This document shows positions 2,370-26,487 of a stretch of 64,000 nt of DNA, in pieces (position 1 is the stretch's first letter; each line of letters opens with the position of its first letter). The translations under genes and the position numbers were made by a program. The DNA comes from Bacteroidota bacterium. Lineage in GTDB: Bacteria; Bacteroidota; Ignavibacteria; UBA10030; UBA6906. The notes beneath the pieces were generated by a model. The model had not been told where the DNA came from, searched no databases, and worked only from the letters and a program-made list of their open reading frames with translations. The DNA is taken from NCBI GenBank assembly GCA_049587715.1, contig JBAVEL010000186.1, positions 16,567 to 80,566 of the forward strand, given 5' to 3'.

Positions 2370-2370
2370 T

Positions 2371-2417: not shown

Positions 2418-3491
2418 ATGGCTGTCACCATCTACGATCTGGCGCGGGAAGCCGGTGTCGGCATCGGCACGGTTTCCCGCTGCATGAACAACCATCCCAG
2501 CGTCGCCCCCGGAACCAGACAGCGCGTTCTCAGCATCGCGAAGCGGCTCTCCTATGTTCCGCACGCGCACGCACAGCGCCTCGCCTCCAAGAAGACAAAC
2601 ACGATCGCCATGATCATCCCCTACTTCACGAACTACTTCTTCGTGAAGATCCTGGAGGGGGTGCAGGATCGTGCGTCCGAGTCGGGATTTGATCTCATCC
2701 TGTACGGTGTCAACAACCCGCTCCAGGCGGATGAGTACCTGCGGAAGTCTCTCCGGCGGGGTCACGTGGACGGGGTGCTCTTCTTCTCCATGCGCTTCCC
2801 GGAGGCCTATGTCTCAAAGTTCATCGAGATCCGGCTCCCTCTCGTGCTGGTGGACGCCTTCCATCCCCGGTTCGACTCGATCAGCGTGGAGAACCGGCAG
2901 GGGGCGGTGCTGGCCGTCCGGCACCTCATCCGTCTGGGCCACAGGTCCATCGCGATGATCAATGCCAGTCCCGACGCAGCCCCCGCCCGGGAGCGGATGG
3001 AGGGATACCGCCTGGCGCTGGAAGAGGCCGGGATTCCGTTTTACCCCTCCAGGGTGGTGGTGCCGGAGCGGGGCCGGCAGGACGGATTCCACAGGGACAC
3101 GGGGCGCGCCGGCATGCTGCGGATCCTGGACTCCATGCGGAGGCGGGATCGCGTGACGGCGGTTCTTGTGGCGAGCGATGTGCAGGCCCTCGGAGCGATG
3201 GAGGCCGCCCGGGAGGGGGGAGTGCGGATCCCGGAGGATCTTGCCATGGTCGGGTTCGACGACATCGACCTGGCGGCACAGGCCCGTCTCACCACGATGC
3301 GCCAGCCGATGTACGAAATGGGGATGCTGGCTCTGGAGCGGCTGATGGGCCGTCTCCGGGAGCCCGACGCGCCGCCCAGAGCTGATTCCTTCGTCCCCGA
3401 GCTGGTGGTGCGGCACACTTGCGGCGCGCAGGACGGGGCCGAGGCCCCGTCCCGGCCCGCCCGGAACCTCTCACTCGGGAAGTCTGCATGA
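2418..3491 (+). CDS. LacI-family transcriptional regulator
   Basis: N-terminal HTH IYDLAREAGVGIGTVSRCMNN, followed by a periplasmic-binding-protein-like sugar-binding core. Confidence 0.9.
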   Translation: MAVTIYDLAREAGVGIGTVSRCMNNHPSVAPGTRQRVLSIAKRLSYVPHAHAQRLASKKTNTIAMIIPYFTNYFFVKILEGVQDRASESGFDLILYGVNNPLQADEYLRKSLRRGHVDGVLFFSMRFPEAYVSKFIEIRLPLVLVDAFHPRFDSISVENRQGAVLAVRHLIRLGHRSIAMINASPDAAPARERMEGYRLALEEAGIPFYPSRVVVPERGRQDGFHRDTGRAGMLRILDSMRRRDRVTAVLVASDVQALGAMEAAREGGVRIPEDLAMVGFDDIDLAAQARLTTMRQPMYEMGMLALERLMGRLREPDAPPRADSFVPELVVRHTCGAQDGAEAPSRPARNLSLGKSA

Positions 3492-5380
3492 TCATTGTGC
3501 TACGAATTTGTCCGTCGAAGCTCTACCTCCGGCCGGCGCTTCTTGCAGCGGCCGCCGGCTTCGCCCTTCTCCCCATCCACCCGGCTCGCGCGGAAGGGGA
3601 GGGCCGGGACCCCTCCTCGGTCCCTTCCTGGGCGGCGGAGGCGGTCTGGTATCAGATCTTCCCCGAGAGATTCCGGAACGGCGACCCGGGGAACGATCCT
3701 TCCCCCGCCGACATGGAGGGGTCCTGGCCGCACGAAACGCCTGGACTGTGGCGTGTCTCCGACTGGAAGGGGGACTGGTACGCCCTCCAGGAATGGGAGA
3801 GGGACCCGGGGAAGGGGTTCTTCCACACTGTGCAGCAACGCCGGTACGGGGGAGACCTGCAGGGGGTCCTGGACAAGCTGGACTACCTGGCCGAGCTGGG
3901 CATCACCGCGATCTACTTCAATCCCCTCTTCGAATCCCCGTCGCTGCACAAGTACGACGCGGCGATGTACCATCACATCGACAACAACTTCGGGCCGGAT
4001 CCGGCCGGAGACCGCCTGATCTGGGCCGCCGAGAACCCGGCGGACCCGGCCACGTGGCGCTGGACCTCGGCGGACAGCCTCTTCCTGCGGCTCATTGCGG
4101 AGGCGCACCGGCGGGGGATCAGGATCATCATCGACGGCGTGTTCAACCACGCGGGGATCACCTTCTGGGCGTTCCGGGATGTCCGCCGGCGCGGCGCGGC
4201 GTCGCCGTATGCCGACTGGTTCCGCATCAGGCAGTGGGACGATCCGGCAACCCCCGGGGACGAGTTCGACTACGAGGGCTGGTACGGCGTACGGGAGCTT
4301 CCCGAGTTCCGGGAGGATGACGGAGGCATCGTCCCCGGACCCAGGGAACACATCCGCCATGTGGTGCGCAGGTGGATGGATCCGAACGGAGACGGAGATC
4401 CCTCCGACGGGGTGGACGGGTGGCGCCTGGATGTGGCGGAGATGGTGGCCGTCCCCTTCTGGAGAGAGTTCCGGACCTGGGTGCGGTCACTGAATCCCGA
4501 GGCCTACCTCGTGGGCGAAGTCTGGTGGGAGGACTGGAACGCGGAAAAGATGTTCAACGCCGAGCCGTGGCTCCGGGGCGACGTATTCGACGCCGTCATG
4601 AACTACCGCTGGGCGAGGGAGGCCGGGAGGTTCTTCAAGGCCGACCGGCATCGCATCGGCGCCCCGGAATTCGACGCCCGTCTTGCGCGGCTCCGCGCGG
4701 ACTACCGCCCCGAAGTGAACGGGGTCCTCCTGAACCTGCTGGACAGCCACGATACCGACCGGCTTGCTTCCCAGATTGTGAATCGGGACGCCCTGTACGA
4801 CAAGGGGACGGGTGTGAGCGACAACCGCGCGTATGCGGTGCGGAAACCCGACGCCCGGGAGCGGAGCATCCAGAAGCTGATGGTGCTGCACCAGATGACC
4901 TACGTGGGCGCGCCGTGCGTGTACTATGGAGACGAGGCGGGCATGTGGGGGGCCGACGACCCCGACTGCCGGAAGCCGATGCTCTGGGCGGATGCGGCCT
5001 ACACCCCCGAGGTCTCCCATCCGTTCGGCCTGGAGCGGCCTGCCGACGACAACACCTTTGATGCGGATCTGTTCGCATACTACGCGGAAGCGATCCGGCT
5101 CCGGAAGTCCTTCCCCGCCCTCCGCCTGGGAAGCGTGGAAACGGTGCTGGCCGACGGCCGGAGCAACCTGCTGGTGTACCTGCGCGTCCTTCCCTCCCAG
5201 CGGGTGCTGACGGCGCTCAACCCCGGGGACGGGGCGGCGGCCTGCATCCTGACGGAGAAGGCCCTGGGGGGCGGGCGCCTGATCCGGGTCTTCGGAGAGG
5301 GGAGCGCGGAGCCCGCTCCGGGCGGCGTGTCGGTGACCATCCCCGGGAGATCCGGGTCGGTGTTCAGGGTGGCCCCGTGA
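3488..5380 (+). CDS. Secreted GH13 alpha-amylase-family glycoside hydrolase (cyclomaltodextrinase/neopullulanase-like)
   Basis: Start MIIVLRICPSK... overlaps the LacI stop (ATGA). Signal-peptide-like N-terminus. GH13 conserved regions: IIIDGVFNHAG, GWRLDVAEMV, EVWW, LLDSHDTDR. Track ORF 3419 start rejected because it is read in LacI's own frame. Confidence 0.85.
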   Translation: MIIVLRICPSKLYLRPALLAAAAGFALLPIHPARAEGEGRDPSSVPSWAAEAVWYQIFPERFRNGDPGNDPSPADMEGSWPHETPGLWRVSDWKGDWYALQEWERDPGKGFFHTVQQRRYGGDLQGVLDKLDYLAELGITAIYFNPLFESPSLHKYDAAMYHHIDNNFGPDPAGDRLIWAAENPADPATWRWTSADSLFLRLIAEAHRRGIRIIIDGVFNHAGITFWAFRDVRRRGAASPYADWFRIRQWDDPATPGDEFDYEGWYGVRELPEFREDDGGIVPGPREHIRHVVRRWMDPNGDGDPSDGVDGWRLDVAEMVAVPFWREFRTWVRSLNPEAYLVGEVWWEDWNAEKMFNAEPWLRGDVFDAVMNYRWAREAGRFFKADRHRIGAPEFDARLARLRADYRPEVNGVLLNLLDSHDTDRLASQIVNRDALYDKGTGVSDNRAYAVRKPDARERSIQKLMVLHQMTYVGAPCVYYGDEAGMWGADDPDCRKPMLWADAAYTPEVSHPFGLERPADDNTFDADLFAYYAEAIRLRKSFPALRLGSVETVLADGRSNLLVYLRVLPSQRVLTALNPGDGAAACILTEKALGGGRLIRVFGEGSAEPAPGGVSVTIPGRSGSVFRVAP

Positions 5381-7053
5381 CCAGGGCAGGGCTCGTCTGC
5401 GCCGGAGGGATGCTCCTCCTGTGCGCGGCCTGTGGAAGGGAGGAGGAGGGGGTGCTGGCCCGCGCGGGTGATGTCATCGTCCGGGTGGACGAATTCCGCG
5501 AGCGCTATGCGGCCTACCTGGCAATGGGTTCCGTGCGGGACAATATCGCGGCGCGGCGGGACGTTCTCAACAACATGCTGAACGAAGGGCTCATCCATGC
5601 CGACATGCGGCGCCAGGGGCTGGACCGCGACGCCGAGGCGCGTGACCGCATCGACGCGATCCGCGCTCAGGCTCTCCTGGACGGCTACGCGCGCCGCATC
5701 TCCACCGATACCCTCACGGTCCCGGAAGAGGAGCTGAAGGAGGAATTCCGGCGGACAAACACGCGGGTCCGGGCCCGCTACGTGTACGGGCCCACCCGGG
5801 AGGATGCCCTGCGTCTCAGGAGGCGTCTGGAGTCGGGGGAGAGCTTCGAGGCGCTGGCCCGCGAGGTCTTCGAAGACCCGGGACTCGCCTCCAACGGAGG
5901 ATCCCTCGGGTCTTTCACGGCGGGGGAGATGGAGCCCGCCCTGGAAGAGGCGGCGTTTGCCCTCCCCCCGGGAGCCCTCTCCGGGCCCGTGAAGCTCTCC
6001 ATGGGATTTGCCATCATACGGGTGGACGACCGGAGGCAGGTTCCCCTCGCTTCGGAATACGACTACGCCCGGAAGAAGGAACAGCTTGCCCGGACCGTTG
6101 TCGAGAGGAAGACCCTGGAGTATCTCGGCAGGGAGCTGGAGGGGATTCGCGGGCGCCTTGCCCCCCGCTTCCGGAAGGAAACCGCGGCGGAGCTGCTCGG
6201 GTCCTGGAACGCCCTGTTTCCGGAGGAGGGGGCGGCCGTGGAGCAGTCCGGATCCGCCGCCTCCCCCGACTTCCGTGCCCGCGAGCTTGTCCGGTGGCAG
6301 GAGGGTGCATGGAGCGTGGAGGAATTCATCCGGAGGGCCCGTGCATCGACGGACCGCCAGCGGCGCCGGGTGAAGACCGAAGCGGACCTGGAGGAATTCG
6401 TCACCGGGCTGGCGGCCCGGGAGGTGCTTGCCGTGCGCGCGCGGGCCTCATCCCTGGAGGAGGACCCCGCCGTGCGGGCCCAGGTGGAGAAGCACACCGG
6501 AATCTACATGCTCAAGCGCTGGCGGAGCCGGGTGGAAGAGGCCGCCGTGCGGGGAGGGTGGCCCGAGGATTCCCTGCGGGATGAGTTCCGCCGCAACGGA
6601 AGCCGGTACATGGTACCCCCCGAGGTGAACGTGGCGGAGATCCTGGTACGGACCCGGAAGGAGGCGGAGGATCTGGCTCGGCGGGTCCGCCGGGGCGAGG
6701 ATTTCGGAGCCCTCGCCCGCAGGTACTCCATACGGCCCTCTTCGGCGCGGGCATCAGGGGAACTGGGCTTCGGAACCCGGACGACCTTCGGGATTCTGGG
6801 GGACCGGTTTTTTTCCGCCCGCAGGGGGGCGATCATCGGGCCGGAGTTCGTGGACCCGTACTACGGGGTCTTCACAATTCTGGAACGGAGGGAAGGAAGG
6901 CCCATGACCTTCGAGGAGGCCCGTGGGGCCCTCCTCCGGGACCGGACGGCCTCGGCCAGAAGCGTCGCGTTCCGCGCGGCGGTGGATGGGCTCCGGTCGC
7001 GGGCCGAGGTGGTGATGGATATGGACATGCTTGCCAATCTCGTCGTCGAGTAA
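5377..7053 (+). CDS. SurA/PrsA-like peptidyl-prolyl cis-trans isomerase (two parvulin domains), lipoprotein
   Basis: Lipobox LLLCAACG. Two PpiC-type rotamase domains (GGSLGSFTAGEMEPALEEAAF... and SGELGFGTRTTFGI...). GTG start overlaps the upstream stop; ATG at 5407 is an alternative start. Confidence 0.75.
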   Translation: MTRAGLVCAGGMLLLCAACGREEEGVLARAGDVIVRVDEFRERYAAYLAMGSVRDNIAARRDVLNNMLNEGLIHADMRRQGLDRDAEARDRIDAIRAQALLDGYARRISTDTLTVPEEELKEEFRRTNTRVRARYVYGPTREDALRLRRRLESGESFEALAREVFEDPGLASNGGSLGSFTAGEMEPALEEAAFALPPGALSGPVKLSMGFAIIRVDDRRQVPLASEYDYARKKEQLARTVVERKTLEYLGRELEGIRGRLAPRFRKETAAELLGSWNALFPEEGAAVEQSGSAASPDFRARELVRWQEGAWSVEEFIRRARASTDRQRRRVKTEADLEEFVTGLAAREVLAVRARASSLEEDPAVRAQVEKHTGIYMLKRWRSRVEEAAVRGGWPEDSLRDEFRRNGSRYMVPPEVNVAEILVRTRKEAEDLARRVRRGEDFGALARRYSIRPSSARASGELGFGTRTTFGILGDRFFSARRGAIIGPEFVDPYYGVFTILERREGRPMTFEEARGALLRDRTASARSVAFRAAVDGLRSRAEVVMDMDMLANLVVE

Positions 7054-7072
7054 TCTACCAAAGGAACAACTC

Positions 7073-9877
7073 ATGAACGAACCACGCCGTCATGCCGTCC
7101 TCCTCGGATTGCTGTTGTGCCTGGGAGGAGTCGCCGTTGCCGGAACCACGGGGAAGATCACCGGGACGGTCCGAGACGCCCAGACGGGCGAGCCGATCGT
7201 GGGGGCCAGCATCGTCATCGAGGGAACCCGGACCGGGGCCGCCACGGATGTCGATGGGTACTATGTCATCCTGAACGTTCCGCCCGGCCGCCATACCCTG
7301 GCGGGTTCGGCGGTGGGCTACACCCGCAAGACCATGAGGGACGTGTCCGTTTCGGTGGATCTCACAACGCGGGCGGACTTCTCCCTCTCGCAGGAGGCGG
7401 TGCAGGCGGAGGAGATCGTGGTGACGGCGGAGCGCCGGGTCATCAAGAAGGACCTCACCTCCTCGGAGTCGAGGGTGACGGCCCAGCAAATCGAGAGCCT
7501 CCCCGTCTCGGAAGTGGCGGAGGTGCTGTCGCTCCAGGCCGGGATTACGACGGACAAGGGGGGCGGGATCCACATCCGGGGGGGGCGTACCAGCGAGGTG
7601 GCATACTGGGTGGACGGGGTGTCGGTCTCCGACGTATATGACGGCACGCAGGCCGTGCAGGTGGACAACAACTCCGTGCAGGAGCTGCAGGTCATCAGCG
7701 GCACCTTCAACGCCGAGTACGGCCAGGCCATGTCGGGCATCGTCAACATCGTGACGAAGGACGGGGACCAGGAGTTCCGGGGGAGTCTCTCCTCCTATGC
7801 GGGGGACTATCTCACCGCCGATGACGGCATCTTCTTCAACAGCGACGACATCCGTCCCTTCGCCAGCCGGAACGTGGAAGGGAGCATCAGCGGTCCGGTG
7901 CCGGGGATCCAGGGCCTGACATTCTACGTTTCGGGCCGCTATTTCGAGACCGACGGCTGGCTGTACGGCAACAGGGTGTACAACGCCGACGGCACGCTCG
8001 CATCGGCGGCGGATACAAACCGCGACGATTCCGGGAATCAGCTCTCCCTGGTTCCGGGATCGCATCCCGTCCCCATGAACAACCGCACCCGCCTGTCCGG
8101 GCAGGCCAAGCTGACCTACCAGTTCTCGGGGGACATGAAGCTCGCCCTGAGCGGGCTTGCGAGCGATGTGGAGTTCCGGGACTACAATCACGACTACAAG
8201 TACATGCCGGATGCGGATGTGCGGAAGTTCGACCGGGGATACAGCGTGTCGGCCCTCTGGACACATTCCCTTTCCCCCACATCGCTCTACACCGTCAACA
8301 CGTCCTACTTCATGAAGCAGTTTGACGAGTATCTGTACGAGAACCCCCTGGACCCCCGGTACATTGTCACTCCCGACCCGGTCCTCCGGCAGAGGAACCT
8401 GAGGGAATTCCTGAAGTTCGGGACGAACAACCACCAGTTCGTCCGGCGGACGGAGTCGCGCGTCGCCAAGCTGGACTATACCGACCAGGTCAGCCGGCTG
8501 CACCAGATCAAGGCGGGGGTGGAGGGGAAGCTGCACCGGCTGTATCTGGAGGATTACAACGTCCGCAACGCCCCCAACACCACGACCGTCGTGGTGATTC
8601 CGGAGTGGTACGGCCCCCAATACCAGGAGTACACGGAGCGGCCGGTTGAGTTCTCGGCGTACCTCCAGGACAAGCTGGAGTACGAGAGCATGATCGTGAA
8701 TGTGGGGCTCCGGTTCGACTACTTTGACTCGCGCGGGAGGGTCCCCCTGGATCCCCAGGATCCCAACGCCTTCAATCCCGCCAAGGACGAGAACCGTGTG
8801 GATCTGAACGGGGACGGCATCAAGTCGGATCTGGAGCAGGTGGAACCCGGAGTGCTCTCGGCCCGGCTGGCACGGTGGTACCGCAGCGCCACGGCCAAGT
8901 ACAGTGTGAGCCCCCGCCTCGGCATCTCCTACCCCATTACCGACAGGGGGGTCCTGCACTTTTCCTACGGGCACTTCCTGCAGATTCCCTCTTTCATACA
9001 CCTCTACCAGAACCCCGGCTTCAAGGTGCAGCCCACGCTGGCAGGCGTGCAGGGGGTCTACGGGAACGCCGACCTGGAAGCGCAGAAGACGGTCCAGTAT
9101 GAGCTGGGACTCCAGCAGCAGCTGACCGAGGACTTGAGCTTCGACCTGACCGGGTTCTACCGCGACACGCGGGAGTGGGTGACCACCAGCACCGCCATCC
9201 CCGTCCGGGACCCGGCCACGGCCATCTCCAGCTACACGACCTACGAAAACAAGGACTACGCCAACGCCCGGGGCATCACGCTCTCGTTGAACAAACGTCC
9301 CAGCAATCTCTGGTCCCTCTCCCTCTCGTATACATACCAGACCGCCGAGGGCATCAACTCCAATCCGGACGACGCCCAGGCGGCCCTGGTGAACAACTCA
9401 CAGCCGGCGCAGCAGCTCATCCCCCTGGACTGGGACCAGACACACACCGCCAACCTGACCGTGGGAGTGGGGGAACAGGACTGGGGGGTCTTCCTGCTTG
9501 CCCGTTACGGCTCGGGTCTTCCCTATTCCCCCGTGCTGAACCAGGCGGAGGGAAGTGGCCAGGATGCGAACCGCGCCGCCCTGCGGAACAGCCGCAGACG
9601 GCCCCCCTCCTACACTGTGGACATGCGTCTGTTCAAGAACTTCAGGGTGGAACCCCTGGATGTGAGCGTCTTCCTGAAGGTCTTCAACCTCTTTGACCGC
9701 AGGAACGAGAACGACATCTACGGCGAGACCGGACGGGCCACCGCCACGCCCGCCGCCCTGGGACTCCCCGCTTCGCCCGGCACCGACAGGGTGAACACGG
9801 TGGTGGAGTTCCTGAACCAGCCGCAGTTCTATTCCGAGCCGCGGGAAGTGCAGATCGGACTGGAAATCAACTTCTGA
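7073..9877 (+). CDS. TonB-dependent receptor (carboxypeptidase-regulatory-like domain + plug + beta-barrel)
   Basis: Start MNEPRRHAVLLGLLLCLGGVAVAG (signal peptide). CarboxypepD_reg-like GKITGTVRDAQTGEPIVGASIV..DVDGYYV. Plug motifs IVVTAERR, ESLPVSEVAEVLSLQAGI. Ends in an aromatic residue (..LEINF) typical of OM barrels. Track TTG start at 7031 trimmed. Confidence 0.8.
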   Translation: MNEPRRHAVLLGLLLCLGGVAVAGTTGKITGTVRDAQTGEPIVGASIVIEGTRTGAATDVDGYYVILNVPPGRHTLAGSAVGYTRKTMRDVSVSVDLTTRADFSLSQEAVQAEEIVVTAERRVIKKDLTSSESRVTAQQIESLPVSEVAEVLSLQAGITTDKGGGIHIRGGRTSEVAYWVDGVSVSDVYDGTQAVQVDNNSVQELQVISGTFNAEYGQAMSGIVNIVTKDGDQEFRGSLSSYAGDYLTADDGIFFNSDDIRPFASRNVEGSISGPVPGIQGLTFYVSGRYFETDGWLYGNRVYNADGTLASAADTNRDDSGNQLSLVPGSHPVPMNNRTRLSGQAKLTYQFSGDMKLALSGLASDVEFRDYNHDYKYMPDADVRKFDRGYSVSALWTHSLSPTSLYTVNTSYFMKQFDEYLYENPLDPRYIVTPDPVLRQRNLREFLKFGTNNHQFVRRTESRVAKLDYTDQVSRLHQIKAGVEGKLHRLYLEDYNVRNAPNTTTVVVIPEWYGPQYQEYTERPVEFSAYLQDKLEYESMIVNVGLRFDYFDSRGRVPLDPQDPNAFNPAKDENRVDLNGDGIKSDLEQVEPGVLSARLARWYRSATAKYSVSPRLGISYPITDRGVLHFSYGHFLQIPSFIHLYQNPGFKVQPTLAGVQGVYGNADLEAQKTVQYELGLQQQLTEDLSFDLTGFYRDTREWVTTSTAIPVRDPATAISSYTTYENKDYANARGITLSLNKRPSNLWSLSLSYTYQTAEGINSNPDDAQAALVNNSQPAQQLIPLDWDQTHTANLTVGVGEQDWGVFLLARYGSGLPYSPVLNQAEGSGQDANRAALRNSRRRPPSYTVDMRLFKNFRVEPLDVSVFLKVFNLFDRRNENDIYGETGRATATPAALGLPASPGTDRVNTVVEFLNQPQFYSEPREVQIGLEINF

Positions 9878-9893
9878 CTCAAGGAGAACGTTC

Positions 9894-12800
9894 ATGAAGC
9901 GCCTTTCTCGATGGCTTGCAGCGGGTCTCCTGTGCCTGGCCGCCATGCCGTGGGTCTCCCCCGCACAGCACGTTCCCAGCAAGGAGCGGGTGGACGCGAG
10001 CCTCCGCCGCCGGACGGAGATTGACGGCAACAACGTCCGGACGAGCGTGTTCAATTTCGTCTTCTCGGGTCGTACGAGCGGGGATCCCAGCGCCGGGGTC
10101 CCCTACGAATGGCCCAAGAACACAAAGCGGTACTACGTGGCCCTGGTGGCCCTGTTCGTGGGAGCGGAGGTTTCGGACGACACGGGGAGAACGGTACGGA
10201 TTGTGGACCTCCCGGAGTACCGGCAGAGCCCTTCGGGGGGGAACTGGAACATGAACCCGGTCAAGGGCTACTTCAACGTGGCCCGGGGCAGGATCGCCAA
10301 GAGCGACGAGCCCGATACGTGGCCGGTGTTCTGGCCCGACAAGATGTCGGACCCCGTGGATCCCGGCTGGAGATTCGAGGGGCCCAACAACACCGACCCT
10401 GATCCGACGCGTCCCGCCTGGAACGGCTTCTTCGGGAAGGGGCAGTTCAGCGCCGACCAGGAGCTCTATGCCCGCGTGGGGGACAACAACTACGACCGCT
10501 TTAACTACTCCCCCGACACGACCGACCCGACCCGCCGGGGTCTCGGGCTGATCATTGACCAGAGGGTGCTCGCCTGGTCGCAGGCCTCGGTGGCGGACGC
10601 GGTGTTCTTCATCCACGAGGTGAAGAACGACGGGTCCAAGGACATCAAGAAGACGGCCGTCACGCTCTGGCTTGCCGACTTTGTGGGAGGAGACGGGGAC
10701 TCGCAGGACGACACCCCCGATTTCGACCTGATTCTGGATGTGGCATTCTCCCTGGATGCGGACGGCCTGAGCAGCAATCCCGCCTTCCAGGGGGCCTACG
10801 TGGGAGCGGCTGCCACTCTGTACCTGGAGACCCCCGGCAACGCAGTGGACCGGATCGACAACGACGGCGACTGCCCCGAGTTCGCCATGGGGCCGCGGGT
10901 CCTGTTCCAGACCACCCAGGGGGCCGGTCCGTTCGGGCCGGAGGTACCCGGGAACCAGCTGGATGACAACGGGAACGGGCTCATCGACGAGGACTCCACC
11001 TACATCCCCTTCGGGCAGCAGAGGGGTGTGGGCTTTGCGGACGGAATCGACAACGACGGAAACGGGGAAGCGGGCAGTCCCCTGGTCACGACGGCCATGG
11101 TCAACCAGGCCTCCTCCGATCCCTGGCAGCGCTGGCCCGCCAATCCCGAGAGCGATCCCTTCATGCAGGGCCTCATCCACCTGATTCAGGTGGGGTCGGA
11201 GGACGAGGGGGCGGCTTTCCGCGACCGCATCGACAACAACGGGGACTGCCCGGACTCGCTCCCCACGGTCACGCAGGCCATGATTGATGAGGCCGCCGGC
11301 GATCCCTTCCGACGCTACAGGGTCCCCGGCACCGGGATCATCCTCTATGACGTGGGATCGGAGGATCTGGGACGGAAATATCTCCACAGGGACAACCTGA
11401 GTGTGGCGTTCCTGGATGAAGGCATCGATGAGATGATCGACGAATCCCGGAACGACGGCATCGACAACGACGGCGACTGGGACCCCCTGCGCGACGACGT
11501 GGGGCTGGACGGGGCGCCGGGAACGGGGGATGTGGGGGAGGGGGACGGGAAACCCACTTCGGGCGTGGGAACACCCTTCCCGGGTGAGCCCAACATCGAC
11601 AAGACGGATGTCTCGGAGGCCGACCAGATCGGGCTCACGAACGTCCAGTATCTTCCGGCGGGCGCCATCAACTTTTCCACCACTCCCGACATCTTCTTCT
11701 GGGCCAGTTTCATGCTCCCGGGCAGTTTCGTGGATCCCAGTCTCATCGGCACGGGGGAGTATGACCTCTTCGTCTCCTCGGGTGTGTTCCCCATGCGGGC
11801 GGGTCAGATCGAGCGGATCTCGTATGCCGTGGTGTTCGGCGCGGCCGTGCGTCCCGGGAACGCAATGGTCTCGGGAGCCAAGGCCGACGCGCTGCGGAAG
11901 AGGGATTTCGCGGTGCTGGCCTACAGCGAGGATTACCAGTTTGCCCAGGCGCCCGTGGAGCCGACGCTTACGGCCGTGGCGGGGGACGGGAGGGTCACCC
12001 TGTACTGGGATGACCGGGCGGAATCCTCCGTGGACAGGTTCCTGGCCGGCATCCCGGGAGCCCAGGCCATGGACTTCGAGGGATACCGCATCTACAGGGC
12101 CACGGACGCGGCGTTCGAGGACGCCCGACTGATTACCGACGGATACGGCAGCCCCGCGCCCTTCCTGAAGCCGATTGCGCAGTTCGACATCAAGAACGGC
12201 ATCAAGGGATTCCACCCCACCCCGTACAACGGTGTGCAGTTCGACCTGGGGTCGGACAACGGTCTGATCCATGCCTGGACGGATTCCACCGTCCAGAACG
12301 GCCAGAGATACTACTATGCCATCCGCGCGTACGATCAGGGGTACGTGCCCCTCAGCATCAGCCCGGCGGAGAGCAACCTGAAGATCAGCATCGACAACGT
12401 GACGGGGGAGGTCACCTCGGTGGGAACCTCCATCGCCATCGTGACGCCCGAGGCGCCCGTGGCGGGCTACCTTCCCCCCGAGGTGAGTCCGATCCAGCTC
12501 GTCCGGGGGACCACCACGGGGGTTGTGGGATACACGGTGGTGGATCCCAACCTGGTGAAGGACGGACACCGCTACCGCATCACATTTGCGGACTCGGTGC
12601 TTCCGGGCTCCACCCCGACCGCTCCCGATACCTTCCGGACCACGAGCTACACGCTGGCGGATATCACGGAGGCTGCGTTTCCCGATACCCTGGTGAACCA
12701 GAAGCGGGAGCTGGCCGACACCTCGGAGCAGCCCATCGTGGACGGCTTCCAGCTCACCTTCCGGAACGAGCGCTTCTTCGGCGTGAACCCCGAGCGGTCC

Positions 12801-13628
12801 GGGTGGTCCAACGACAGCATCTGGGCCCTGGATTTCCGGCAATGGAAAGCCATCCCGTTCTTCCAGGGACTCCAGAAACCGGCCGACTATCTGCTGACCT
12901 TCGGCCCCGTGGGATCCGACACCTCCACCCAGTTCACCGTGGCGAGCGGCCCGAGCGGCACCCCGCCCGCCCGACCGGTGAACTTCCGTGTGTTCAACAC
13001 GAGCGAGAACAAACAGATTGACTTCGCCTTCCTGGAGCTGGATAACGGCGGCGGGGCGGGCCTGTTCAGCGCCCGCTACGACGCCTTCGGACGGACCATC
13101 AGCGACATCATCGTGTTTCTGGAGCGCGACGCAAGCGACAGTGTGGTGATCACCTGGAGTTTCCGGGCCGTCTTCGATTCCAGCAGCAGGCGGAGGGGCC
13201 CGCGCGACGGTGACACCGCCGTGGTGGTTCTGGCCAAGCTCTTCCGGTCCTCGGATGTATTCGAGTTTGCGACTTCGGCCCAGAGGGTGGATCCCGACAG
13301 GGCCCGGCGCGAACTGGACCGCATCAAGGTGGTGCCGAATCCCTACGTGGCGGCCGCCGCCTGGGAGGGGAGAAACCCGTTCTCCTCGGGACGCGGCCCC
13401 CGGTCGCTCCACTTCATCCACCTTCCGCAGCGGTGTACCATCAGGATCTTCACGGTGAGCGGGGAGCTTGTGTCCACGATCGAGCACGAGAGCGGGATCC
13501 TGGACGGCACGGCGGAGTGGAACCTTCTCACCCGCGACAACCTGGACGTGGCCTACGGAGTGTACATCTATCACGTGGATGCGCCGGGACTGGGGGAGAA
13601 GGTGGGCAAGTTCGCCATCATCAAGTAG
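9894..13628 (+). CDS. Large (1244 aa) secreted protein with thrombospondin-type-3-like Ca-binding DxDxDG repeats and a T9SS/FlgD-Ig-type C-terminal sorting domain
   Basis: AAGGAG RBS 8 nt upstream. Signal peptide MKRLSRWLAAGLLCLAAMPWVSPA. Repeats RIDNDGDCPE, GIDNDGNGEAG, RIDNNGDCPD, GIDNDGDWDPLRDDVGLDGAPGTGDVGEGDG. C-terminus VVPNPYV..CTIRIFTVSGELVSTIE..GVYIYHV..GKFAIIK. Confidence 0.75.
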   Translation: MKRLSRWLAAGLLCLAAMPWVSPAQHVPSKERVDASLRRRTEIDGNNVRTSVFNFVFSGRTSGDPSAGVPYEWPKNTKRYYVALVALFVGAEVSDDTGRTVRIVDLPEYRQSPSGGNWNMNPVKGYFNVARGRIAKSDEPDTWPVFWPDKMSDPVDPGWRFEGPNNTDPDPTRPAWNGFFGKGQFSADQELYARVGDNNYDRFNYSPDTTDPTRRGLGLIIDQRVLAWSQASVADAVFFIHEVKNDGSKDIKKTAVTLWLADFVGGDGDSQDDTPDFDLILDVAFSLDADGLSSNPAFQGAYVGAAATLYLETPGNAVDRIDNDGDCPEFAMGPRVLFQTTQGAGPFGPEVPGNQLDDNGNGLIDEDSTYIPFGQQRGVGFADGIDNDGNGEAGSPLVTTAMVNQASSDPWQRWPANPESDPFMQGLIHLIQVGSEDEGAAFRDRIDNNGDCPDSLPTVTQAMIDEAAGDPFRRYRVPGTGIILYDVGSEDLGRKYLHRDNLSVAFLDEGIDEMIDESRNDGIDNDGDWDPLRDDVGLDGAPGTGDVGEGDGKPTSGVGTPFPGEPNIDKTDVSEADQIGLTNVQYLPAGAINFSTTPDIFFWASFMLPGSFVDPSLIGTGEYDLFVSSGVFPMRAGQIERISYAVVFGAAVRPGNAMVSGAKADALRKRDFAVLAYSEDYQFAQAPVEPTLTAVAGDGRVTLYWDDRAESSVDRFLAGIPGAQAMDFEGYRIYRATDAAFEDARLITDGYGSPAPFLKPIAQFDIKNGIKGFHPTPYNGVQFDLGSDNGLIHAWTDSTVQNGQRYYYAIRAYDQGYVPLSISPAESNLKISIDNVTGEVTSVGTSIAIVTPEAPVAGYLPPEVSPIQLVRGTTTGVVGYTVVDPNLVKDGHRYRITFADSVLPGSTPTAPDTFRTTSYTLADITEAAFPDTLVNQKRELADTSEQPIVDGFQLTFRNERFFGVNPERSGWSNDSIWALDFRQWKAIPFFQGLQKPADYLLTFGPVGSDTSTQFTVASGPSGTPPARPVNFRVFNTSENKQIDFAFLELDNGGGAGLFSARYDAFGRTISDIIVFLERDASDSVVITWSFRAVFDSSSRRRGPRDGDTAVVVLAKLFRSSDVFEFATSAQRVDPDRARRELDRIKVVPNPYVAAAAWEGRNPFSSGRGPRSLHFIHLPQRCTIRIFTVSGELVSTIEHESGILDGTAEWNLLTRDNLDVAYGVYIYHVDAPGLGEKVGKFAIIK

Positions 13629-13678
13629 AGCCGTCCTCCCATGCGTACAACGAAAAGAATGACGGAGAGGAGAAACCC

Positions 13679-14707
13679 GTGAAACGGTCAGCCGGTTTGT
13701 TCGCCATCATCTTCCTCCTTGGTGCCGCGGCCGCCCCGGCGGCGCAGGCGCAGGAGGTCACCAAAGTCGGCACCACCTCGGCGAAGTTCCTGAGCATCCC
13801 CGTGGGTGCACGCGCGGTGGGAATGGGAGGGGCGTTTGTGGCCGTAGCCAACGATGCCTCCGCCATGTTCTGGAATCCGGCCGGGATCACGAAGATCTTC
13901 CAGGCGGAAGCCCTCTTCACCCATGCCCAGTGGCTTGCCGACATCGACTTCAACTACGGGGGGGTGGTGTTTCCCGTGGAGGGGGTGGGTGTCCTGGGCG
14001 TCAACTTCACCTCGCTGACAATGGACGAGATGGAGCGGACGACGGAACGGCAGCCCGAGGGTACGGGGGAGTTCTTCTCCGTGGGGAGCATCGCCGTGGG
14101 TGTGGCGTACGCGCGGGAGCTCACGGACTGGTTCTCCATCGGGGGAAACGCCAAGTACGTCCGGGAAAGCATCTGGAACTCCAGCGCCACCGGCTTCGCC
14201 GTGGACGTGGGAACGCTGTTCCAGACCCCCTTCTCGGGTCTCCGCTTCGGCGCCGCCATCACGAATTTCGGGACGAAGCTCCAGATGACCGGAGAAGACC
14301 TTCTGGTCCAGAAGGACATCAGCCCGAACAACGGGAACAACCCCAACGTGAACGCGGAGCTGAAAACCGACCGCTTCGACATGCCCCTGACCCTGCGGAT
14401 CGGGCTGGCCTATGAGCCGATTGCGGACGAAGACCAGCAGCTCACGATTGTGGCCGATGCGGTGCACCCCAACGACAACTCCGAGAGCATCAGCATCGGG
14501 GGAGAGTACAGCGGGTTCCGGCGGATACTCTCCATCCGCGGGGGATACCGCTCCCTGGGCCAGCTCGACGCGGAAGAGGAGTTCACCGTGGGAGGCGGAG
14601 TGCGGTACCCCGTGTCACCCGCGCTGACACTGAAGTTCGACTATGCCTTCGAGCGGTTCGGCCGGCTGGACAACGTGCACAAGTTCTCGTTCGGGATCAT
14701 GTTCTGA
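13679..14707 (+). CDS. PorV/PorQ-family outer-membrane beta-barrel (FadL-like, T9SS shuttle/anchor paralog)
   Basis: GTG start with GGAGAGGAG RBS. Signal peptide then hallmark TSAKFLSIPVGARAVGMGGAFVAVANDASAMFWNPAGI. C-terminal ...KFSFGIMF. Family assignment is from motif memory only. Confidence 0.6.
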   Translation: MKRSAGLFAIIFLLGAAAAPAAQAQEVTKVGTTSAKFLSIPVGARAVGMGGAFVAVANDASAMFWNPAGITKIFQAEALFTHAQWLADIDFNYGGVVFPVEGVGVLGVNFTSLTMDEMERTTERQPEGTGEFFSVGSIAVGVAYARELTDWFSIGGNAKYVRESIWNSSATGFAVDVGTLFQTPFSGLRFGAAITNFGTKLQMTGEDLLVQKDISPNNGNNPNVNAELKTDRFDMPLTLRIGLAYEPIADEDQQLTIVADAVHPNDNSESISIGGEYSGFRRILSIRGGYRSLGQLDAEEEFTVGGGVRYPVSPALTLKFDYAFERFGRLDNVHKFSFGIMF

Positions 14708-14762
14708 GGGGAATCCACACAAACAACGTCCGTTCACCCACAACAACAAGCAGGAGGAAGCC

Positions 14763-16664
14763 ATGAGACACCGTTGGCTCATGCATGCCGTAGCCCTGGG
14801 CGTGCTCGTCTGTCTGGCCGCGGGCCTGTCGGTCGCCCAGAACGACGCAACGTTCCAGGTCAACATGAAGATCAAGATGAAGGAGGGAACCTTCCTGCCC
14901 GGGAGCGGGGATATTGTCCGCGTCGCGGGAGGATTCAACAACTGGGGGAGCTCCACCGACACCCTGCGGGATGGGGATGGAGACAGCATCTACACCAAGA
15001 CCATCTCCCTTGCCACCGGGGCCATCCTCTACAAGTTCCTCAAGACCCCGCGGGGAGGCCTCGACTGGGAGGCGGACCCGAACCGGGAATACACGGTGGT
15101 GGCGGGATCCCAGACGATTCCCGTCGTCTATTTCGACCGCGACTCCATCTACAACCCCCCCACGGCGGACGTTCCGGTGACCTTCGGGGTGGACATGGGA
15201 GTGCTCATGTGCGAGGGGTTGTTCCTTCCGGGAAGCGGGGACATCGTGCGCGTGGCGGGGGGGTTCAACAACTGGGGTGGATCCACGGACACCCTCAAGG
15301 ATGCGGACAATGACAGCATCTACACCAAGACGATCACCCTGATGGAGAGCCAGGCCATCCGGTACAAGTTCCTGAAGACCCCCCGGGGGGGGATTGACTG
15401 GGAGGGGAACGTGAATCCCTCCGATCCCGACGGAAACCGCACCTACACCGTTCCCACCGGCGGAGGTCCCATTCCGGTCGCCTACTTCAACAACGATTCG
15501 GTCTGCAGCATCGTGGTGACCGCCAACGTCCTCTGGCAGGCGGAGATGACCCCGTACCAGCAGCTGGGGTGGTTCAACCCCGTCATCGATTCCCTACAGG
15601 TGCGGGGAGGGTTCAACTCATGGGGCGGGTCCCTCATGGACTTCGACCCGCTCACCACGGGGACCTACTTTGTGACCGTGCCCGTGACGGGCTCCGTCGG
15701 AGAGCCGGTGTTCCACAAGTACTTCATCGACCTGGACGAGGCCACGGCCGAGACCCGCTTCCCCGGATACTCGGGGGATGCGGACGGAGTCCGCTATGAG
15801 CATCCATACACCCGGGGAGACGGGAACCGGGGCTTTGCCATTCCCGGCGGCGGCAACCAGGCCACGGAGCTCTTCTGGTTCAGCGACATTCATCCGGGGG
15901 GCCTCCTGAAGAACCTCACGGACACCGTGTCGGTCACGATGCGGGTGGACATGGGGCCGGCCACGCGGGACGCCATCGCCTTCGACCCGGCGGCGGACAG
16001 CGTGCGGATCATCTTCTTCGACCGGATGTGGGTGGGGGCGCAGGCGGCCCGGCAGGGCGGGACGTCGTCGTCGTTCCCCAATATCGATCTCCTCCCCACG
16101 CCCGATCCGGCCGACACGATCTACCAGGGGACCTTCAAGGTCGTGGGGAAGGCCCACTACGGCATCCTGTACGGGTATGAGTTCCGCCAGCCCGGCGGGG
16201 CCACCTCCAGCGAGGGTGCGGGACTCGGCGCCCAGGGAGGGCGGAGGGTCCGTTTCATCCAGCCCCTGGCTCCCAACTCGTTCCCCCGGTTCTATACCGC
16301 TCCGCTGGACAGCTGGAAGAAGAACGCGCCGCTGTTCGGGGAGACTCCTCCCTACAACCCTTCAGCGGGTGTGATCGAAGATCCCACGCCGGGGGTGCCC
16401 GAGGGCTTCACCCTGGGGCAGAACTACCCCAACCCCTTCAACCCGAGCACGAAGTTCCGGTACAGCGTGCCCGAGAAGGCGCGGGTGATGCTCCGGGTGT
16501 ATGATATCCTCGGGCGTGAAGTGGCTACCCTGGTGAATCAGGAGCAGGCGGCGGGAAGCTACATTGCTCTGTTCGAGTCCAACAACCTGCCCACGGGCGT
16601 CTACTTCTACCGCCTGGAGGCGGGCAGGTTCAGCGAGACCCGGAAGATGGTGCTGCTGAGGTAG
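14763..16664 (+). CDS. Secreted protein with three tandem starch/glycogen-binding CBM-like domains (VAGGFNNWG motif) and a T9SS C-terminal sorting domain
   Basis: AGGAGGA RBS. Signal peptide MRHRWLMHAVALGVLVCLAAGLSVAQ. Repeats GDIVRVAGGFNNWG(S/G)STDTL..YKFLKTPRGG(L/I)DWE. C-terminal tail QNYPNPFNPSTKFRYSVPEKARVMLRVYDILGREVATLV..GVYFYRLEAGRFSETRKMVLLR. Confidence 0.8.
   Translation: MRHRWLMHAVALGVLVCLAAGLSVAQNDATFQVNMKIKMKEGTFLPGSGDIVRVAGGFNNWGSSTDTLRDGDGDSIYTKTISLATGAILYKFLKTPRGGLDWEADPNREYTVVAGSQTIPVVYFDRDSIYNPPTADVPVTFGVDMGVLMCEGLFLPGSGDIVRVAGGFNNWGGSTDTLKDADNDSIYTKTITLMESQAIRYKFLKTPRGGIDWEGNVNPSDPDGNRTYTVPTGGGPIPVAYFNNDSVCSIVVTANVLWQAEMTPYQQLGWFNPVIDSLQVRGGFNSWGGSLMDFDPLTTGTYFVTVPVTGSVGEPVFHKYFIDLDEATAETRFPGYSGDADGVRYEHPYTRGDGNRGFAIPGGGNQATELFWFSDIHPGGLLKNLTDTVSVTMRVDMGPATRDAIAFDPAADSVRIIFFDRMWVGAQAARQGGTSSSFPNIDLLPTPDPADTIYQGTFKVVGKAHYGILYGYEFRQPGGATSSEGAGLGAQGGRRVRFIQPLAPNSFPRFYTAPLDSWKKNAPLFGETPPYNPSAGVIEDPTPGVPEGFTLGQNYPNPFNPSTKFRYSVPEKARVMLRVYDILGREVATLVNQEQAAGSYIALFESNNLPTGVYFYRLEAGRFSETRKMVLLR
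14844..15590 (+). repeat. Intragenic tandem duplication of a CBM-like domain (two ~370-nt units with high nucleotide identity)
   Basis: Unit 1 ...ttcctgcccgggagcggggatattgtccgcgtcgcgggaggattcaacaactggggg... and unit 2 ...ttccttccgggaagcggggacatcgtgcgcgtggcgggggggttcaacaactggggt... A third more diverged unit follows. Confidence 0.6.
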
Positions 16665-16694
16665 GCCGGAGGCCCGTTCCGGGATGCCACATTC

Positions 16695-16740
16695 GGGGCC
16701 CCGGCTTCCCTTCACCGGGAGGCCGGGGCCCCCTGTTTCA
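16695..16740. terminator. GC-rich hairpin (GGGGCCCCGGC...GCCGGGGCCCC) between convergent genes
   Basis: 11-bp perfect stem followed by ctgtttc on the plus strand. Lies between the CBM gene end (16664) and the stop of the convergent SGNH/TPR gene (16738). Confidence 0.45.
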
Positions 16741-26486: not shown

Positions 26487-26487
26487 C

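Follow-up and report, generated by a model that had tools for sequence, protein, structure and literature searches.

A conserved triad of TonB-dependent transporter, giant secreted protein and PorV-like barrel as candidate core of a SusD-independent glycan-uptake module

Which protein captures glycans for the TonB-dependent transporter (TBDT) of an alpha-glucan utilization locus devoid of SusD is the question raised by the window analyzed here, i.e., 64,000 nt of contig JBAVEL010000186.1 from a Bacteroidota bacterium of the Ignavibacteria (GCA_049587715.1). In agreement with a preliminary description of this DNA, the locus combines three GH13 genes, GH57, GDE_C, MalEFGK and a CBM20 protein with a LacI-family regulator, and a SusD-like gene is found neither among the GC3-supported ORFs between 1 and 37 kb of the window nor in any annotated orthologous or paralogous locus examined. 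Probably, the classical SusC/SusD glycan-capture pair is replaced by a triad of TBDT, a giant secreted protein and a PorV-like barrel, and with somewhat better than even confidence we regard this triad as the conserved core of a SusD-independent, T9SS-reliant outer membrane glycan-uptake module, specialized here for alpha-glucans and working by the mechanism proposed below.

The single strong promoter site within 2000–17500 is a sigma-70-like candidate deduced from consensus matching (2342–2369; TTGACA-16-TATATT with TG extension, 11 of 12 matches; plus strand, as all features below unless stated otherwise). It precedes the LacI-family gene (2418–3491; LacI HTH 52.9 bits, Peripla_BP_3 122.3 bits), a homologue of which flanks 18 of 79 related loci, at times on the opposite strand or weakly similar. 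Then follows a GH13 alpha-amylase with signal peptide, probably periplasmic (3485–5380; Alpha-amylase 179.7 bits), whose gene overlaps by 4 nt with the start of a SurA-like parvulin PPIase gene (5377–7053; two rotamase domains in HMM scans) and lies directly 5' of the PPIase in many relatives as well. The PPIase of the window carries a lipoprotein-like signal (LLLCAAC), lipidation not being conserved in orthologues. Beyond the triad, a CBM20/CBM48-like repeat protein with canonical T9SS type A tail is encoded (14763–16664; CBM_20 35.3 bits; TIGR04183 42.9 vs. cutoff 23), which is probably a surface starch-binding protein, followed by a GH13 enzyme with T9SS-type C-terminal domain (CTD), a candidate surface amylase/pullulanase (21064–23823; Alpha-amylase, FlgD_ig, NYPNPFNPST tail). 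The 3' part of the locus (23820–31472) comprises GH57+CBM20, a GH13-like gene and a MalE/MalF/MalG-type ABC importer, and a MalK-type ATPase is encoded on the minus strand (1089–2765).

The triad itself consists, as initially described, of three consecutive co-oriented genes with short spacers (16 and 50 nt), encoding the TBDT (7073–9877; ATG start, 934 aa), the giant, a secreted protein of an unnamed family (9894–13628; 1244 aa), and a PorV/PorQ-family outer membrane barrel (13679–14707; 342 aa). For the latter, GTG at 13679 is the most likely start, with GGAGAGGAG just before it, rather than the ORF start at 13433, which overlaps the giant gene. Spacing across the triad is operon-like and counts in favor of the uptake-module reading. 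Pfam and NCBIfam HMMs bear out the TBDT as a CarboxypepD_reg-plug-barrel receptor, with signal peptide, CarboxypepD_reg-like N-terminal domain (CarbopepD_reg_2, 72.9 bits), plug (Plug, 46.2 bits), large barrel with terminal F (OMP_b-brl_4/3) and a TonB-box-like EEIVVTAER at 7409–7435. Membership in the SusC/RagA family, on the other hand, was rejected (TIGR04056, 89.4 bits vs. cutoff 368.25). The PorV/PorQ-family assignment of the third gene, which the preliminary description had staked on HMM searches, stands as well: NF033709 (PorV_fam) is matched at 229.6 bits (cutoff 90), the GARAVGMGGAF...NPAG signature is found, and the nearest solved relative is PorV from F. johnsoniae (6h3i_F, E 2e-9). 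According to the equivalog models, however, the barrel is neither PorV proper (77.8 bits vs. cutoff 250) nor PorQ proper (90.9 bits vs. cutoff 220), nor is it PorV2.

Synteny of the triad in relatives and its co-occurrence across FCB genomes, both envisaged at the outset as checks, are evident from 79 species-level loci of at least six FCB lineages (Ignavibacteria, Melioribacter, Calditrichota, Marinimicrobia, Rhodothermales, Zhuqueibacter), with at least 586 genome matches confirmed by tblastn. Wherever sequence suffices, these loci show a fixed order of SurA-like PPIase, TBDT, giant, PorV-like barrel and CBM20/T9SS protein; the three-gene cassette initially delineated is thus real, but the conserved unit extends beyond it in both directions. 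As for the PPIase, 62 related loci have it 5' of the TBDT, and the remaining 17 stop short of that position; a TBDT of one specific clade directly precedes the giant wherever upstream sequence is available, namely in 70 orthologous and eight paralogous loci. Likewise, the PorV-like barrel directly follows all giant copies bearing the family tail in every related or paralogous locus with enough sequence. In 65 related loci, the CBM20/T9SS protein is encoded 3' of the barrel; of the 14 others, 13 run out of sequence no more than about 500 nt from the barrel gene, and the last one (L058) extends 9 kb beyond the barrel with no match to this protein. Median identity across phyla amounts to 49% for the giant, 44 and 47% for the two barrels and 33% for the CBM protein. 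The giant family is large, with more than 1350 full-length homologues, every one labelled hypothetical, and 4296 cluster-50 representatives at E<1e-3.

Triad synteny extends to seven distant paralogous loci keeping the family tail, and in distant paralogues (31–42% identity) the TBDT-giant-barrel arrangement is kept with full-length homology for all three proteins. TBDT, giant and barrel are co-diversified as a unit, across phyla and substrate types. Paralogous triads are found next to CBM9-T9SS, GH16, GH3 and GH5 genes (L086), GH3 (L087), GH26 (L088) and MFS+ROK (L092), and distant relatives of the SurA-like PPIase are encoded near two of them (L087 and L093). Since the triad also resides beside genes of beta-glucan/mannan type and others, it represents a general module rather than a starch-specific one. 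Hence, the glucan capture initially proposed would be a single case of a broader system. The CBM20 protein is the likelier starch binder; starch binding could be accounted for by this separate protein, with the giant not needed. As to the distribution of the canonical system, susCD genes are reported to be scarce in Ignavibacteriales and absent from Kapabacteria CAZyme clusters (PMC10576277), while the cassette-bearing Melioribacter roseus has a canonical sus operon, too (PMC3534657). Because such hosts possess both, the module is not a mere stand-in where SusD is missing.

The giant starts with a type I signal peptide (residues 1–24, mature N-terminus Gln25) and did not match any Pfam family when scanned whole and as five pieces. 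In a fold search, its N-terminal part (9966–10868) belongs to a galactose-mutarotase-like or GH-type carbohydrate-binding beta-supersandwich, to which residues ~580–650 probably contribute extra strands, and the best matches of this region are N-domains of alpha-glucan-active GH15 enzymes. Of the lectin/CBM or peptidase folds to be looked for according to the preliminary description, a carbohydrate-binding-type supersandwich was found, and a peptidase fold was not. The supersandwich fold also occurs in numerous proteins not binding sugars by themselves (e.g., YidC P1, amine oxidases), and in GH15, GH65 and GH94 enzymes it forms a structural N-domain, not a lectin. Moreover, the N-terminal domain is conserved at 28–46% among paralogues from loci of differing substrates, which argues for a generic rather than a substrate-specific role. 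The adjacent Asp-rich region (10848–11480) holds five (I/L)DN(D/N)G-type loops (residues 319–529), two of them within a tandem repeat of about 60 aa (z = 15). By their motif, the loops are putatively Ca-binding, and the region is shortened or missing in paralogues. The many thrombospondin-type-3-like DxDxDG repeats initially reported were overstated, as the strict DxDxDG motif is absent from the giant and Pfam TSP_3 gives no match. Further Fn3/Ig-like domains follow, first an Fn3-like one with an FEGYRIYR motif (11958–12335; weak match to Fn3-like 3mpc) and then more beta-sandwich domains up to ~13300; the Foldseek matches here are strings of Fn3 domains.

The C-terminal domain (13326–13625) is a seven-strand beta-sandwich and represents a variant, specific to this family, of the type A sorting domain of the T9SS, with VVPNPY, a 19-aa insertion at 13350–13406 (AAAAWEGRNPFSSGRGPRS) containing a near-invariant GRGxR, and GKFAIIK as last residues. 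Of the T9SS-type sorting tail initially ascribed to the giant, the kinship with type A holds at the profile-profile level (hhalign 95.9% with genuine type A CTDs) and at the fold level, but no threshold of any curated T9SS CTD HMM is reached, and T9SS export is uncertain for this reason. The giant also keeps a Lys close to its C-terminus, which makes contact with PorV in F. johnsoniae structures. The insertion variant co-occurs with the adjoining barrel gene, whereas a PorV-like gene is missing downstream of the only paralogue whose tail is of the ordinary type A (P0170, n = 1). We infer T9SS export of the giant, retention of its CTD and docking on the adjoining barrel. The sole NCBIfam match of the giant, at a sub-threshold level, is to the PorZ C-terminus, a resemblance also seen in Foldseek, and the PorZ CTD is known to remain uncleaved and to bind PorQ (PMC10202324). 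Giant and barrel might therefore form, beside the TBDT, a PorZ/PorQ-like sorting or attachment platform for the other T9SS cargo encoded there (GH13-CTD, CBM-CTD) without binding glycans. Conservation of the full giant, including its N-terminus, among paralogues serving differing substrates would suit such a role, as would the T9SS-tailed CBM and GH proteins alongside most triads examined. However, the defining beta-propellers of PorZ are missing, similarity being limited to the terminal sandwich domains, general attachment would require neither a copy per glycan locus nor strict TBDT adjacency, and the N-terminal fold is typical for carbohydrate-active proteins. We thus consider this platform rather improbable.

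In view of the architecture of the giant, with Ig/Fn3-like domains strung together over a long stretch and Asp-rich loops, a co-regulated surface adhesin or surface-layer protein not directly involved in transport can also be envisaged, with the barrel as secretion carrier and anchor in the manner of SprF for the adhesin SprB, a precedent for a cognate carrier (PMC10202324; PMC10994853). Yet fast evolution and variable length are usual for adhesins, whereas the giant shows about 50% identity and nearly constant length across phyla, a conservation level that fits several protein-protein interfaces, and it is never parted from the one-clade TBDT. Accordingly, this explanation appears improbable. 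Still less credit can be given to an unrecognized carbohydrate-active hydrolase, lyase or transglycosylase working at the transporter mouth, despite numerous invariant positions (Asp, Glu, His, Trp, Tyr) and top overall fold matches from GH15, GH65, GH94 and GH116 enzymes. These matches cover only the non-catalytic N-domain, the model is almost entirely beta without any (alpha/alpha)6, TIM-barrel, beta-helix or other catalytic fold, in line with the lack of a recognizable catalytic motif stated initially, CAZy-type Pfam matches were not obtained, and one scaffold across alpha-glucan, beta-glucan and mannan paralogues would be unusual for an active site. Finally, a TBDT-folding assembly of barrel, PPIase and giant akin to the BAM accessories BamG-BamH and BamJ/K is highly improbable, since, although the BAM of Bacteroidota has a FadL-like barrel as platform for a PPIase-containing extracellular dome (PMC12578637) and the cassette includes a SurA-like PPIase, the barrel gives a weak NCBIfam match to BamG at 27.9 bits (cutoff 250) while passing the PorV_fam cutoff, the module is multi-copy and bound to particular glycan loci rather than housekeeping, and BamA or BamD genes were not found nearby.

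For the favored uptake module, the following sequence of events is proposed. The Sec signal would take the giant through the inner membrane, and its divergent type-A-like CTD would be recognized in the T9SS translocon by the barrel encoded just 3', acting as private carrier. With the CTD uncleaved, the giant would be held at the surface on its barrel, as in PorU/PorV, PorZ/PorQ and SprB/SprF. Presented on the Fn3/Ig-like stalk, supersandwich and Asp-rich region may bind glucan chains or the oligosaccharides that the T9SS-anchored GH13 enzyme and the CBM20 protein set free, and the giant may hand these over to the adjoining TBDT for import. Periplasmic GH13 and the MalEFGK-type importer would complete uptake and breakdown, the SurA-like PPIase might be a dedicated periplasmic chaperone of the large outer membrane components, and the LacI-family protein would control the operon. 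The initial interpretation of the giant as PorV-anchored substrate-binding partner of the TBDT is thus partly supported, sugar binding and TBDT contact being inferred.

A description of this module was not found in the literature, but several known systems share traits with it. As in SusC/SusD (RagA/RagB), a TBDT with carboxypeptidase-regulatory-like N-terminus adjoins the gene of a surface partner, and the pair has been multiplied and diversified as a unit, each copy lying among the CAZymes, surface glycan-binding proteins and regulator dedicated to a single glycan. In contrast, the triad TBDT is outside the SusC/RagA family by HMM, its partner is a beta-rich protein of 1000–1600 aa with Sec signal and T9SS-like CTD instead of a SusD-fold TPR lipoprotein, display would need the T9SS and not lipoprotein export, and a PorV-family barrel is the third obligatory gene. 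MalA of Caulobacter is a SusD-independent carbohydrate TBDT importing oligosaccharides, and so is SuxA of Xanthomonas (PMC1790865). Both are encoded, like the triad, in sugar loci together with inner-membrane transporters and a LacI-type regulator, but an adjacent giant or PorV-like barrel has not been described as needed, and their hosts lack the T9SS. Precedent for conserved adjoining surface partners from otherwise unknown families comes from Bacteroides, where non-SusC TBDTs have alternative lipoprotein 'lids' (Price et al., bioRxiv 10.1101/2023.03.17.533168); these are small lipoproteins for small substrates, whereas the giant is unlipidated in the window, about ten times larger and has its own barrel.

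Regarding surface anchorage, giant and barrel resemble the PorU-PorV, PorZ-PorQ and SprB-SprF pairs, although the giant is unrelated to these cargos beyond the terminal domain, its CTD, marked by a conserved insertion, constitutes a subtype of its own, and the pair is tied to a TBDT and glycan loci. The sprF gene adjoins sprB, just as the barrel gene adjoins that of the giant. In these pairs, a barrel of the PorV superfamily (PorP family in the case of SprF, a dedicated alternative carrier) is combined with a cargo retaining its anchoring CTD (PMC10202324; PMC10994853), a retention that is proposed for the giant as well. The xylan locus Rmar_1067-1073 of Rhodothermus marinus encodes a LacI protein, two CTD-bearing xylanolytic enzymes, the TonB-dependent receptor Rmar_1070, the hypothetical proteins Rmar_1071, with a Por CTD, and Rmar_1072, treated as such, and another CTD protein, and a SusC/SusD pair is present there, too (PMC6987092). 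By the published table, its gene order matches that of the triad locus.

The window has a G+C content of about 65%, and a run of plus-strand genes stands out in it by codon-position G+C. The run comprises a LacI-family regulator (2418–3491), a GH13 amylase carrying a signal peptide (about 3485–5380) and a SurA-like parvulin-type PPIase (5377–7053), followed by the TonB-dependent receptor (TBDT, 7073–9877), the 1244-aa giant protein (9894–13628), the PorV/PorQ-family barrel (13679–14707) and a protein of CBM20/CBM48-like repeats that ends in a canonical T9SS type A tail (14763–16664; TIGR04183 at 42.9 bits versus a cutoff of 23). Intergenic spacers along the cassette are −4, 19, 16, 50 and 55 nt, and the only strong sigma-70-like site is found 5' of the LacI gene. 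Further alpha-glucan genes within the first 37 kb encode a T9SS-tailed GH13, a GH57 with CBM20, another GH13-like protein, MalE/F/G-type ABC components, a MalK-type ATPase and an amylo-alpha-1,6-glucosidase. The matches for LacI, GH13, GH57 and Mal genes bear out the alpha-glucan locus under a LacI-family regulator that had been recognized in the preliminary description. The signal sequence of the PPIase (5377–5460) is of the lipoprotein type and followed by acidic residues (C-GREEEG) in the window and in many orthologues, while many others, including several from Ignavibacteria and Melioribacteraceae, show a plain signal peptide. As the lipobox is present in some orthologues only, lipoprotein status was dropped as a conserved trait.

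An island of low G+C (37100–40100; 0.51 versus 0.65) separates the alpha-glucan locus from a response-regulator gene. It encodes a 279-aa transposase-like protein (37186–38025, minus strand), a 156-aa protein resembling a DUF4065/Panacea-type antitoxin (38844–39314) and a small membrane protein, and is probably a mobile insertion. A GWxTD-domain protein (40722–42326; 36.7 bits) is encoded ahead of a lipid A acyltransferase and of a heptosyltransferase of family GT9. Farther along lie genes for LeuRS, an ABC exporter and two GAF-SpoIIE phosphatases; all of these are unrelated to the triad of TBDT, giant and barrel.

The TBDT has a plug domain and, C-terminal to it, a large beta-barrel, with CarbopepD_reg_2 (72.9 bits), Plug (46.2 bits, cutoff 23.9), OMP_b-brl_4 (51.6 bits, cutoff 30) and OMP_b-brl_3 (49.2 bits, cutoff 27) from Pfam and several TonB receptor models of NCBIfam matching at sub-family level. 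Judged by sequence resemblance, a TonB-box-like segment, EEIVVTAER, lies at residues 113–121, after the CarboxypepD_reg domain and ahead of the plug. The SusC/RagA model TIGR04056, however, aligns only at its positions 2–208 and reaches 89.4 bits versus a cutoff of 368.25, placing the receptor outside SusC/RagA; likewise, SusC homologues from the PDB align only with the N-terminal approximately 180–240 residues. In line with the SusD-less cassette proposed earlier, SusD Pfam families are absent from all genes of the window locus and from the annotated related loci, so that the definition of a canonical PUL, with a SusD-family gene next to the TBDT, does not apply. Assignment of the barrel to the PorV family, for which an HMM check had been suggested, is firm: NF033709 matches over model positions 1–326 of 326 at 229.6 bits versus 90, the Pfam PorV model at 33 bits versus 27, and the nearest solved relative is PorV of F. 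johnsoniae (PDB, E 2e-9). The barrel stays below the equivalog cutoffs for PorV (77.8 versus 250), PorQ (90.9 versus 220) and PorV2 (89.6 versus 325). An identity as BamG was rejected at 27.9 bits versus 250 (NF053685). Its most plausible start is GTG at 13679, with the Shine-Dalgarno-like GGAGAGGAG upstream; a start at 13433, within the giant coding region, is a long-open-frame artefact of mechanical ORF calling, and the overlap 13433–13678 is not real. When read by eye, the predicted signal-peptidase I sites of giant (A/QHVPS), barrel (AQA/QEVTK) and CBM protein (VA/QNDAT) all give products beginning with Gln, with mature N-termini at 9966, 13745 and 14835. A Q-rule, i.e., an N-terminal pyroglutamate, has been described for secreted proteins of Bacteroidetes, and the three Gln-first products fit it.

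For the giant, neither Pfam nor NCBIfam holds a family, whether the protein is scanned whole or in five pieces, apart from a sub-threshold NCBIfam match to the PorZ C-terminus. The many thrombospondin-type-3-like DxDxDG repeats attributed to it reduce to five (I/L)DN(D/N)G loops, two of which lie within a tandem repeat of about 60 aa (z = 15), and PF02412 gives no hit at E ≤ 5 in residues 301–570. A profile of 40 giant homologues searched against PDB sequences matched just Fn3, weakly, and a toxin, by chance. AlphaFold2 models built with 40 homologues are nearly all beta (residues 45–1244, pLDDT 77 and pTM 0.57; residues 25–690, pTM 0.74). When the full 1200-residue model was compared with the PDB by Foldseek, generic Fn3 strings dominated and PorZ was the sole informative match; hence, the N-terminal 666 residues were modelled separately. 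By fold, this region matches the supersandwich of the galactose-mutarotase-like or glycoside-hydrolase carbohydrate-binding type, a domain that may bind sugar, and no catalytic domain accompanies it in the models. It is followed by the Asp-rich region, an Fn3-like domain (FEGYRIYR), more sandwiches and a seven-strand terminal domain, whereas the two beta-propellers preceding the CTD (C-terminal sorting domain) in PorZ are absent. A separate family of about 950-aa proteins shares the supersandwich (43–45% identity to residues 8–316) but has an ordinary Por_Secre_tail; it is represented at 19522–20361 of the related locus L052 and by the proteins P0203, P0224, P0237, P0245, P0265, P0268 and P0269, with P0203 additionally matching residues 578–664 and 875–1228. 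One copy lies directly 3' of a T9SS-tailed GH13 gene in a related starch locus.

With regard to the T9SS-type sorting tail ascribed to the giant, no CTD model passed: TIGR04183 and PF18962 (type A) gave no match at E ≤ 5 to either the whole protein or its last 122 residues, and CHU_C (type B) reached only E 0.14. Nevertheless, the extreme C-terminus is a seven-strand Ig-like sandwich homologous to known CTDs and bears a conserved Lys near its end. The terminal domain is a distinct CTD subtype, beginning with VVPNPY, containing an insertion of 15–19 residues with a near-invariant GRGxR, which is modelled at low confidence, and ending with GKFAxIK. A single homologue, P0170 (212–3541 of locus L089), has an ordinary type A tail (NFPNPFNP...KRMMLLR) instead; here, none of the genes downstream is PorV-like, and the locus lacks its upstream part. 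This one case is consistent with the family-specific tail being matched to the private barrel. A T9SS in the source organism we infer solely from the canonical CTDs encoded by neighbouring genes.

More than 1350 full-length homologues of the giant with 50–75% identity were found, all annotated as hypothetical and none with a Pfam domain, and a scan of one genome per species confirmed at least 586 relatives. Synteny was mapped by tblastn of the window proteins for the best 79 of the loci of these at least 586 relatives, which belong to Ignavibacteria, Melioribacteraceae (including a cultured Melioribacter), Calditrichota, Marinimicrobia/Neomarinimicrobiota, Rhodothermales/Rubricoccaceae, Zhuqueibacter and MAGs labelled Bacteroidota. 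As far as contigs reach, the order PPIase, TBDT, giant, PorV-like barrel and CBM/T9SS protein is uniform and on one strand across the 79 loci, and a GH13 gene is usually located just 5' of the cassette or within 10 kb; in locus L058, the CBM/T9SS gene was not detected despite 9 kb available 3' of the barrel. The triad is thus syntenic in relatives, and its genes are consecutive and co-oriented as first described, but the conserved unit exceeds three genes, with the PPIase and the CBM/T9SS protein to be added. Median identity to the window protein is 49% for the giant, 47% for the barrel, 44% for the TBDT, 33% for the CBM protein and 29% for the PPIase. Pairwise identities correlate highly among all cassette proteins, a correlation that does not discriminate partners because shared phylogeny raises all values. 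A housekeeping role, prompted by the high conservation, was dropped, as all copies lie in glycan loci and the cassette has paralogues. In one genome, two triad-type cassettes stand in tandem (L035, 68–3356), the last part of another giant (45% identity), together with its PorV-like gene, directly preceding the GH13-PPIase-TBDT-giant-barrel cassette, and locus L050 carries a second LacI and TBDT pair downstream.

When 1.84 billion cluster representatives were searched exhaustively with HMMER, 4296 relatives of the giant emerged at E < 1e-3. Distant members of about 1040 aa form a group represented in Ignavibacterium album, Melioribacteraceae, Rosettibacter, Calditrichaeota and WOR-3, with loci encoding, in this order, a CBM9-T9SS protein, a TBDT, the giant paralogue and a PorV-like barrel, followed, depending on the locus, by GH16, GH3 and GH5 (many T9SS-tailed), by GH3 or by GH26. 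More distant members place the triad beside MFS and ROK genes or beside genes for GDSL/TPR, CBM9 and FG-GAP proteins. Compared with the window, the paralogous loci show 32–41% identity for the TBDT (full length where the contig allows) and 36–49% for the barrel, while the giants share the N-terminal domain (28–46%) and also the C-terminal 700 residues, with a variable Asp-rich insert. As TBDT and barrel are homologous in all these loci, the three genes have been duplicated and have diverged as one unit. The triad is a general module and not specific for starch; accordingly, glucan capture as originally suggested fits the alpha-glucan context here, but the module is broader and also occurs in other glycan loci. 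An intermediate idea, namely that loci for different substrates had exchanged the N-terminal domain, proved wrong, since BLAST shows paralogues sharing both this domain and the C-terminal core. Within the window, two proteins that each combine GDSL-lipase and TPR parts are encoded side by side in the glucan locus (16738–19176 and 18762–21272, minus strand), and similar GDSL or GDSL/TPR proteins also adjoin very distant paralogous triads in loci L093 and L095.

PorV-superfamily barrels are carriers binding CTDs in the SprA translocon, and cargo that keeps its CTD is docked on a cognate barrel in the pairs PorU/PorV, PorZ/PorQ and type B SprB/SprF (PMC10202324; PMC10994853). In the BAM complex of Bacteroidota, extracellular proteins can also be mounted on FadL-like barrels (PMC12578637). 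In analogy to these cases, the downstream barrel would be reserved for the giant, as its carrier and anchor. Anchored in this way, the giant might work, via its supersandwich, with the neighbouring TBDT by capturing or handing over glucan fragments, which the T9SS-anchored GH13 would produce and the CBM20 protein would retain. Uptake would then be finished by a periplasmic GH13 and the MalEFGK system, and the SurA-like PPIase would chaperone the large outer-membrane components. TBDT, giant and barrel probably act as a single functional unit in glycan uptake independent of SusD, and for the full chain, with a barrel-anchored giant acting with the TBDT in glucan uptake, the balance tips slightly in favour. 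The preliminary interpretation is supported in part: every computational test run on it came out in its favour, and the analysis shows family memberships, folds, synteny and the paralogy of the module as a whole, while we infer the mechanistic core, i.e., how the giant is secreted, that it keeps its CTD and docks on the barrel, and that it binds sugar and contacts the TBDT.

Given the resemblance of the giant to PorZ and the preservation of its whole scaffold across substrates, giant and barrel might instead form a PorZ/PorQ-like sorting platform for the other T9SS cargo of the locus. As the giant lacks the propellers of PorZ and is found at one copy per locus, we regard this as unlikely. Slightly less likely still is an adhesin with a private carrier, considering that the giant evolves slowly and its link to a TBDT is unbroken. 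An unrecognised enzyme is improbable, the fold matches covering non-catalytic N-domains only. With a barrel so far under the BamG cutoff, a BAM-like assembly aid is very improbable.

Returning to the giant as a barrel-anchored partner of the TBDT, one may tentatively go further, albeit with the balance slightly on the other side: the triad may represent a hitherto unrecognised, ancient and widespread class of outer-membrane glycan import, employing a T9SS-delivered partner on a private PorV-family barrel instead of a SusD lipoprotein, and be the main polysaccharide route in FCB lineages poor in SusD (Ignavibacteria, Kapabacteria-like groups, Calditrichota, Marinimicrobia and part of Rhodothermota). 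The resulting three-protein complex of two barrels and a surface protein of about 130 kDa would be without structural precedent. SusC/SusD accounts for glycan uptake in Bacteroidota. Few or no susCD genes occur in large environmental FCB lineages that degrade polysaccharides; they are reportedly scarce in Ignavibacteriales and absent in CAZyme clusters of Kapabacteria (PMC10576277), and the triad is a testable candidate for substrate capture by the TBDT. In M. roseus, which has a canonical sus operon (PMC3534657), the triad cassette is also present (L026, L083), demonstrating that both systems can coexist. The giant family, which counts thousands of members and is covered by neither Pfam nor NCBIfam, would mark polysaccharide loci outside Bacteroidia for CAZyme-cluster predictors. 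If the proposal is true, the cognate carrier logic of the T9SS would reach beyond adhesins and sortase components to nutrient uptake, and structural studies would gain a new type of TBDT partner. The module is open to experiment in the cultured carriers Melioribacter, Ignavibacterium, Rosettibacter and, probably, Rhodothermus marinus.

Full-text literature searches returned no paper naming, studying or describing the giant family or the triad. By gene order and labels alone, a look-alike is the xylan locus Rmar_1067-1073 of the cultured and genetically tractable R. marinus, comprising LacI, CTD-bearing GH43 and GH10, a TonB-dependent receptor, a hypothetical CTD protein, a hypothetical protein and another hypothetical CTD protein (PMC6987092, Table 1). 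The closest functional analogue is SusC/SusD, whose pairs likewise duplicate and diverge as a unit, but the TBDT here is outside SusC/RagA (89 versus 368 bits) and SusD is absent. In mechanism, the giant/barrel pair would resemble PorZ-PorQ, PorU-PorV and SprB-SprF, whereas the barrel is no named equivalog and the giant is unrelated to their cargo beyond the tail. To judge from the literature searched, the way in which a TBDT-centred glycan locus is combined here with a T9SS cognate-carrier pair is without earlier description.
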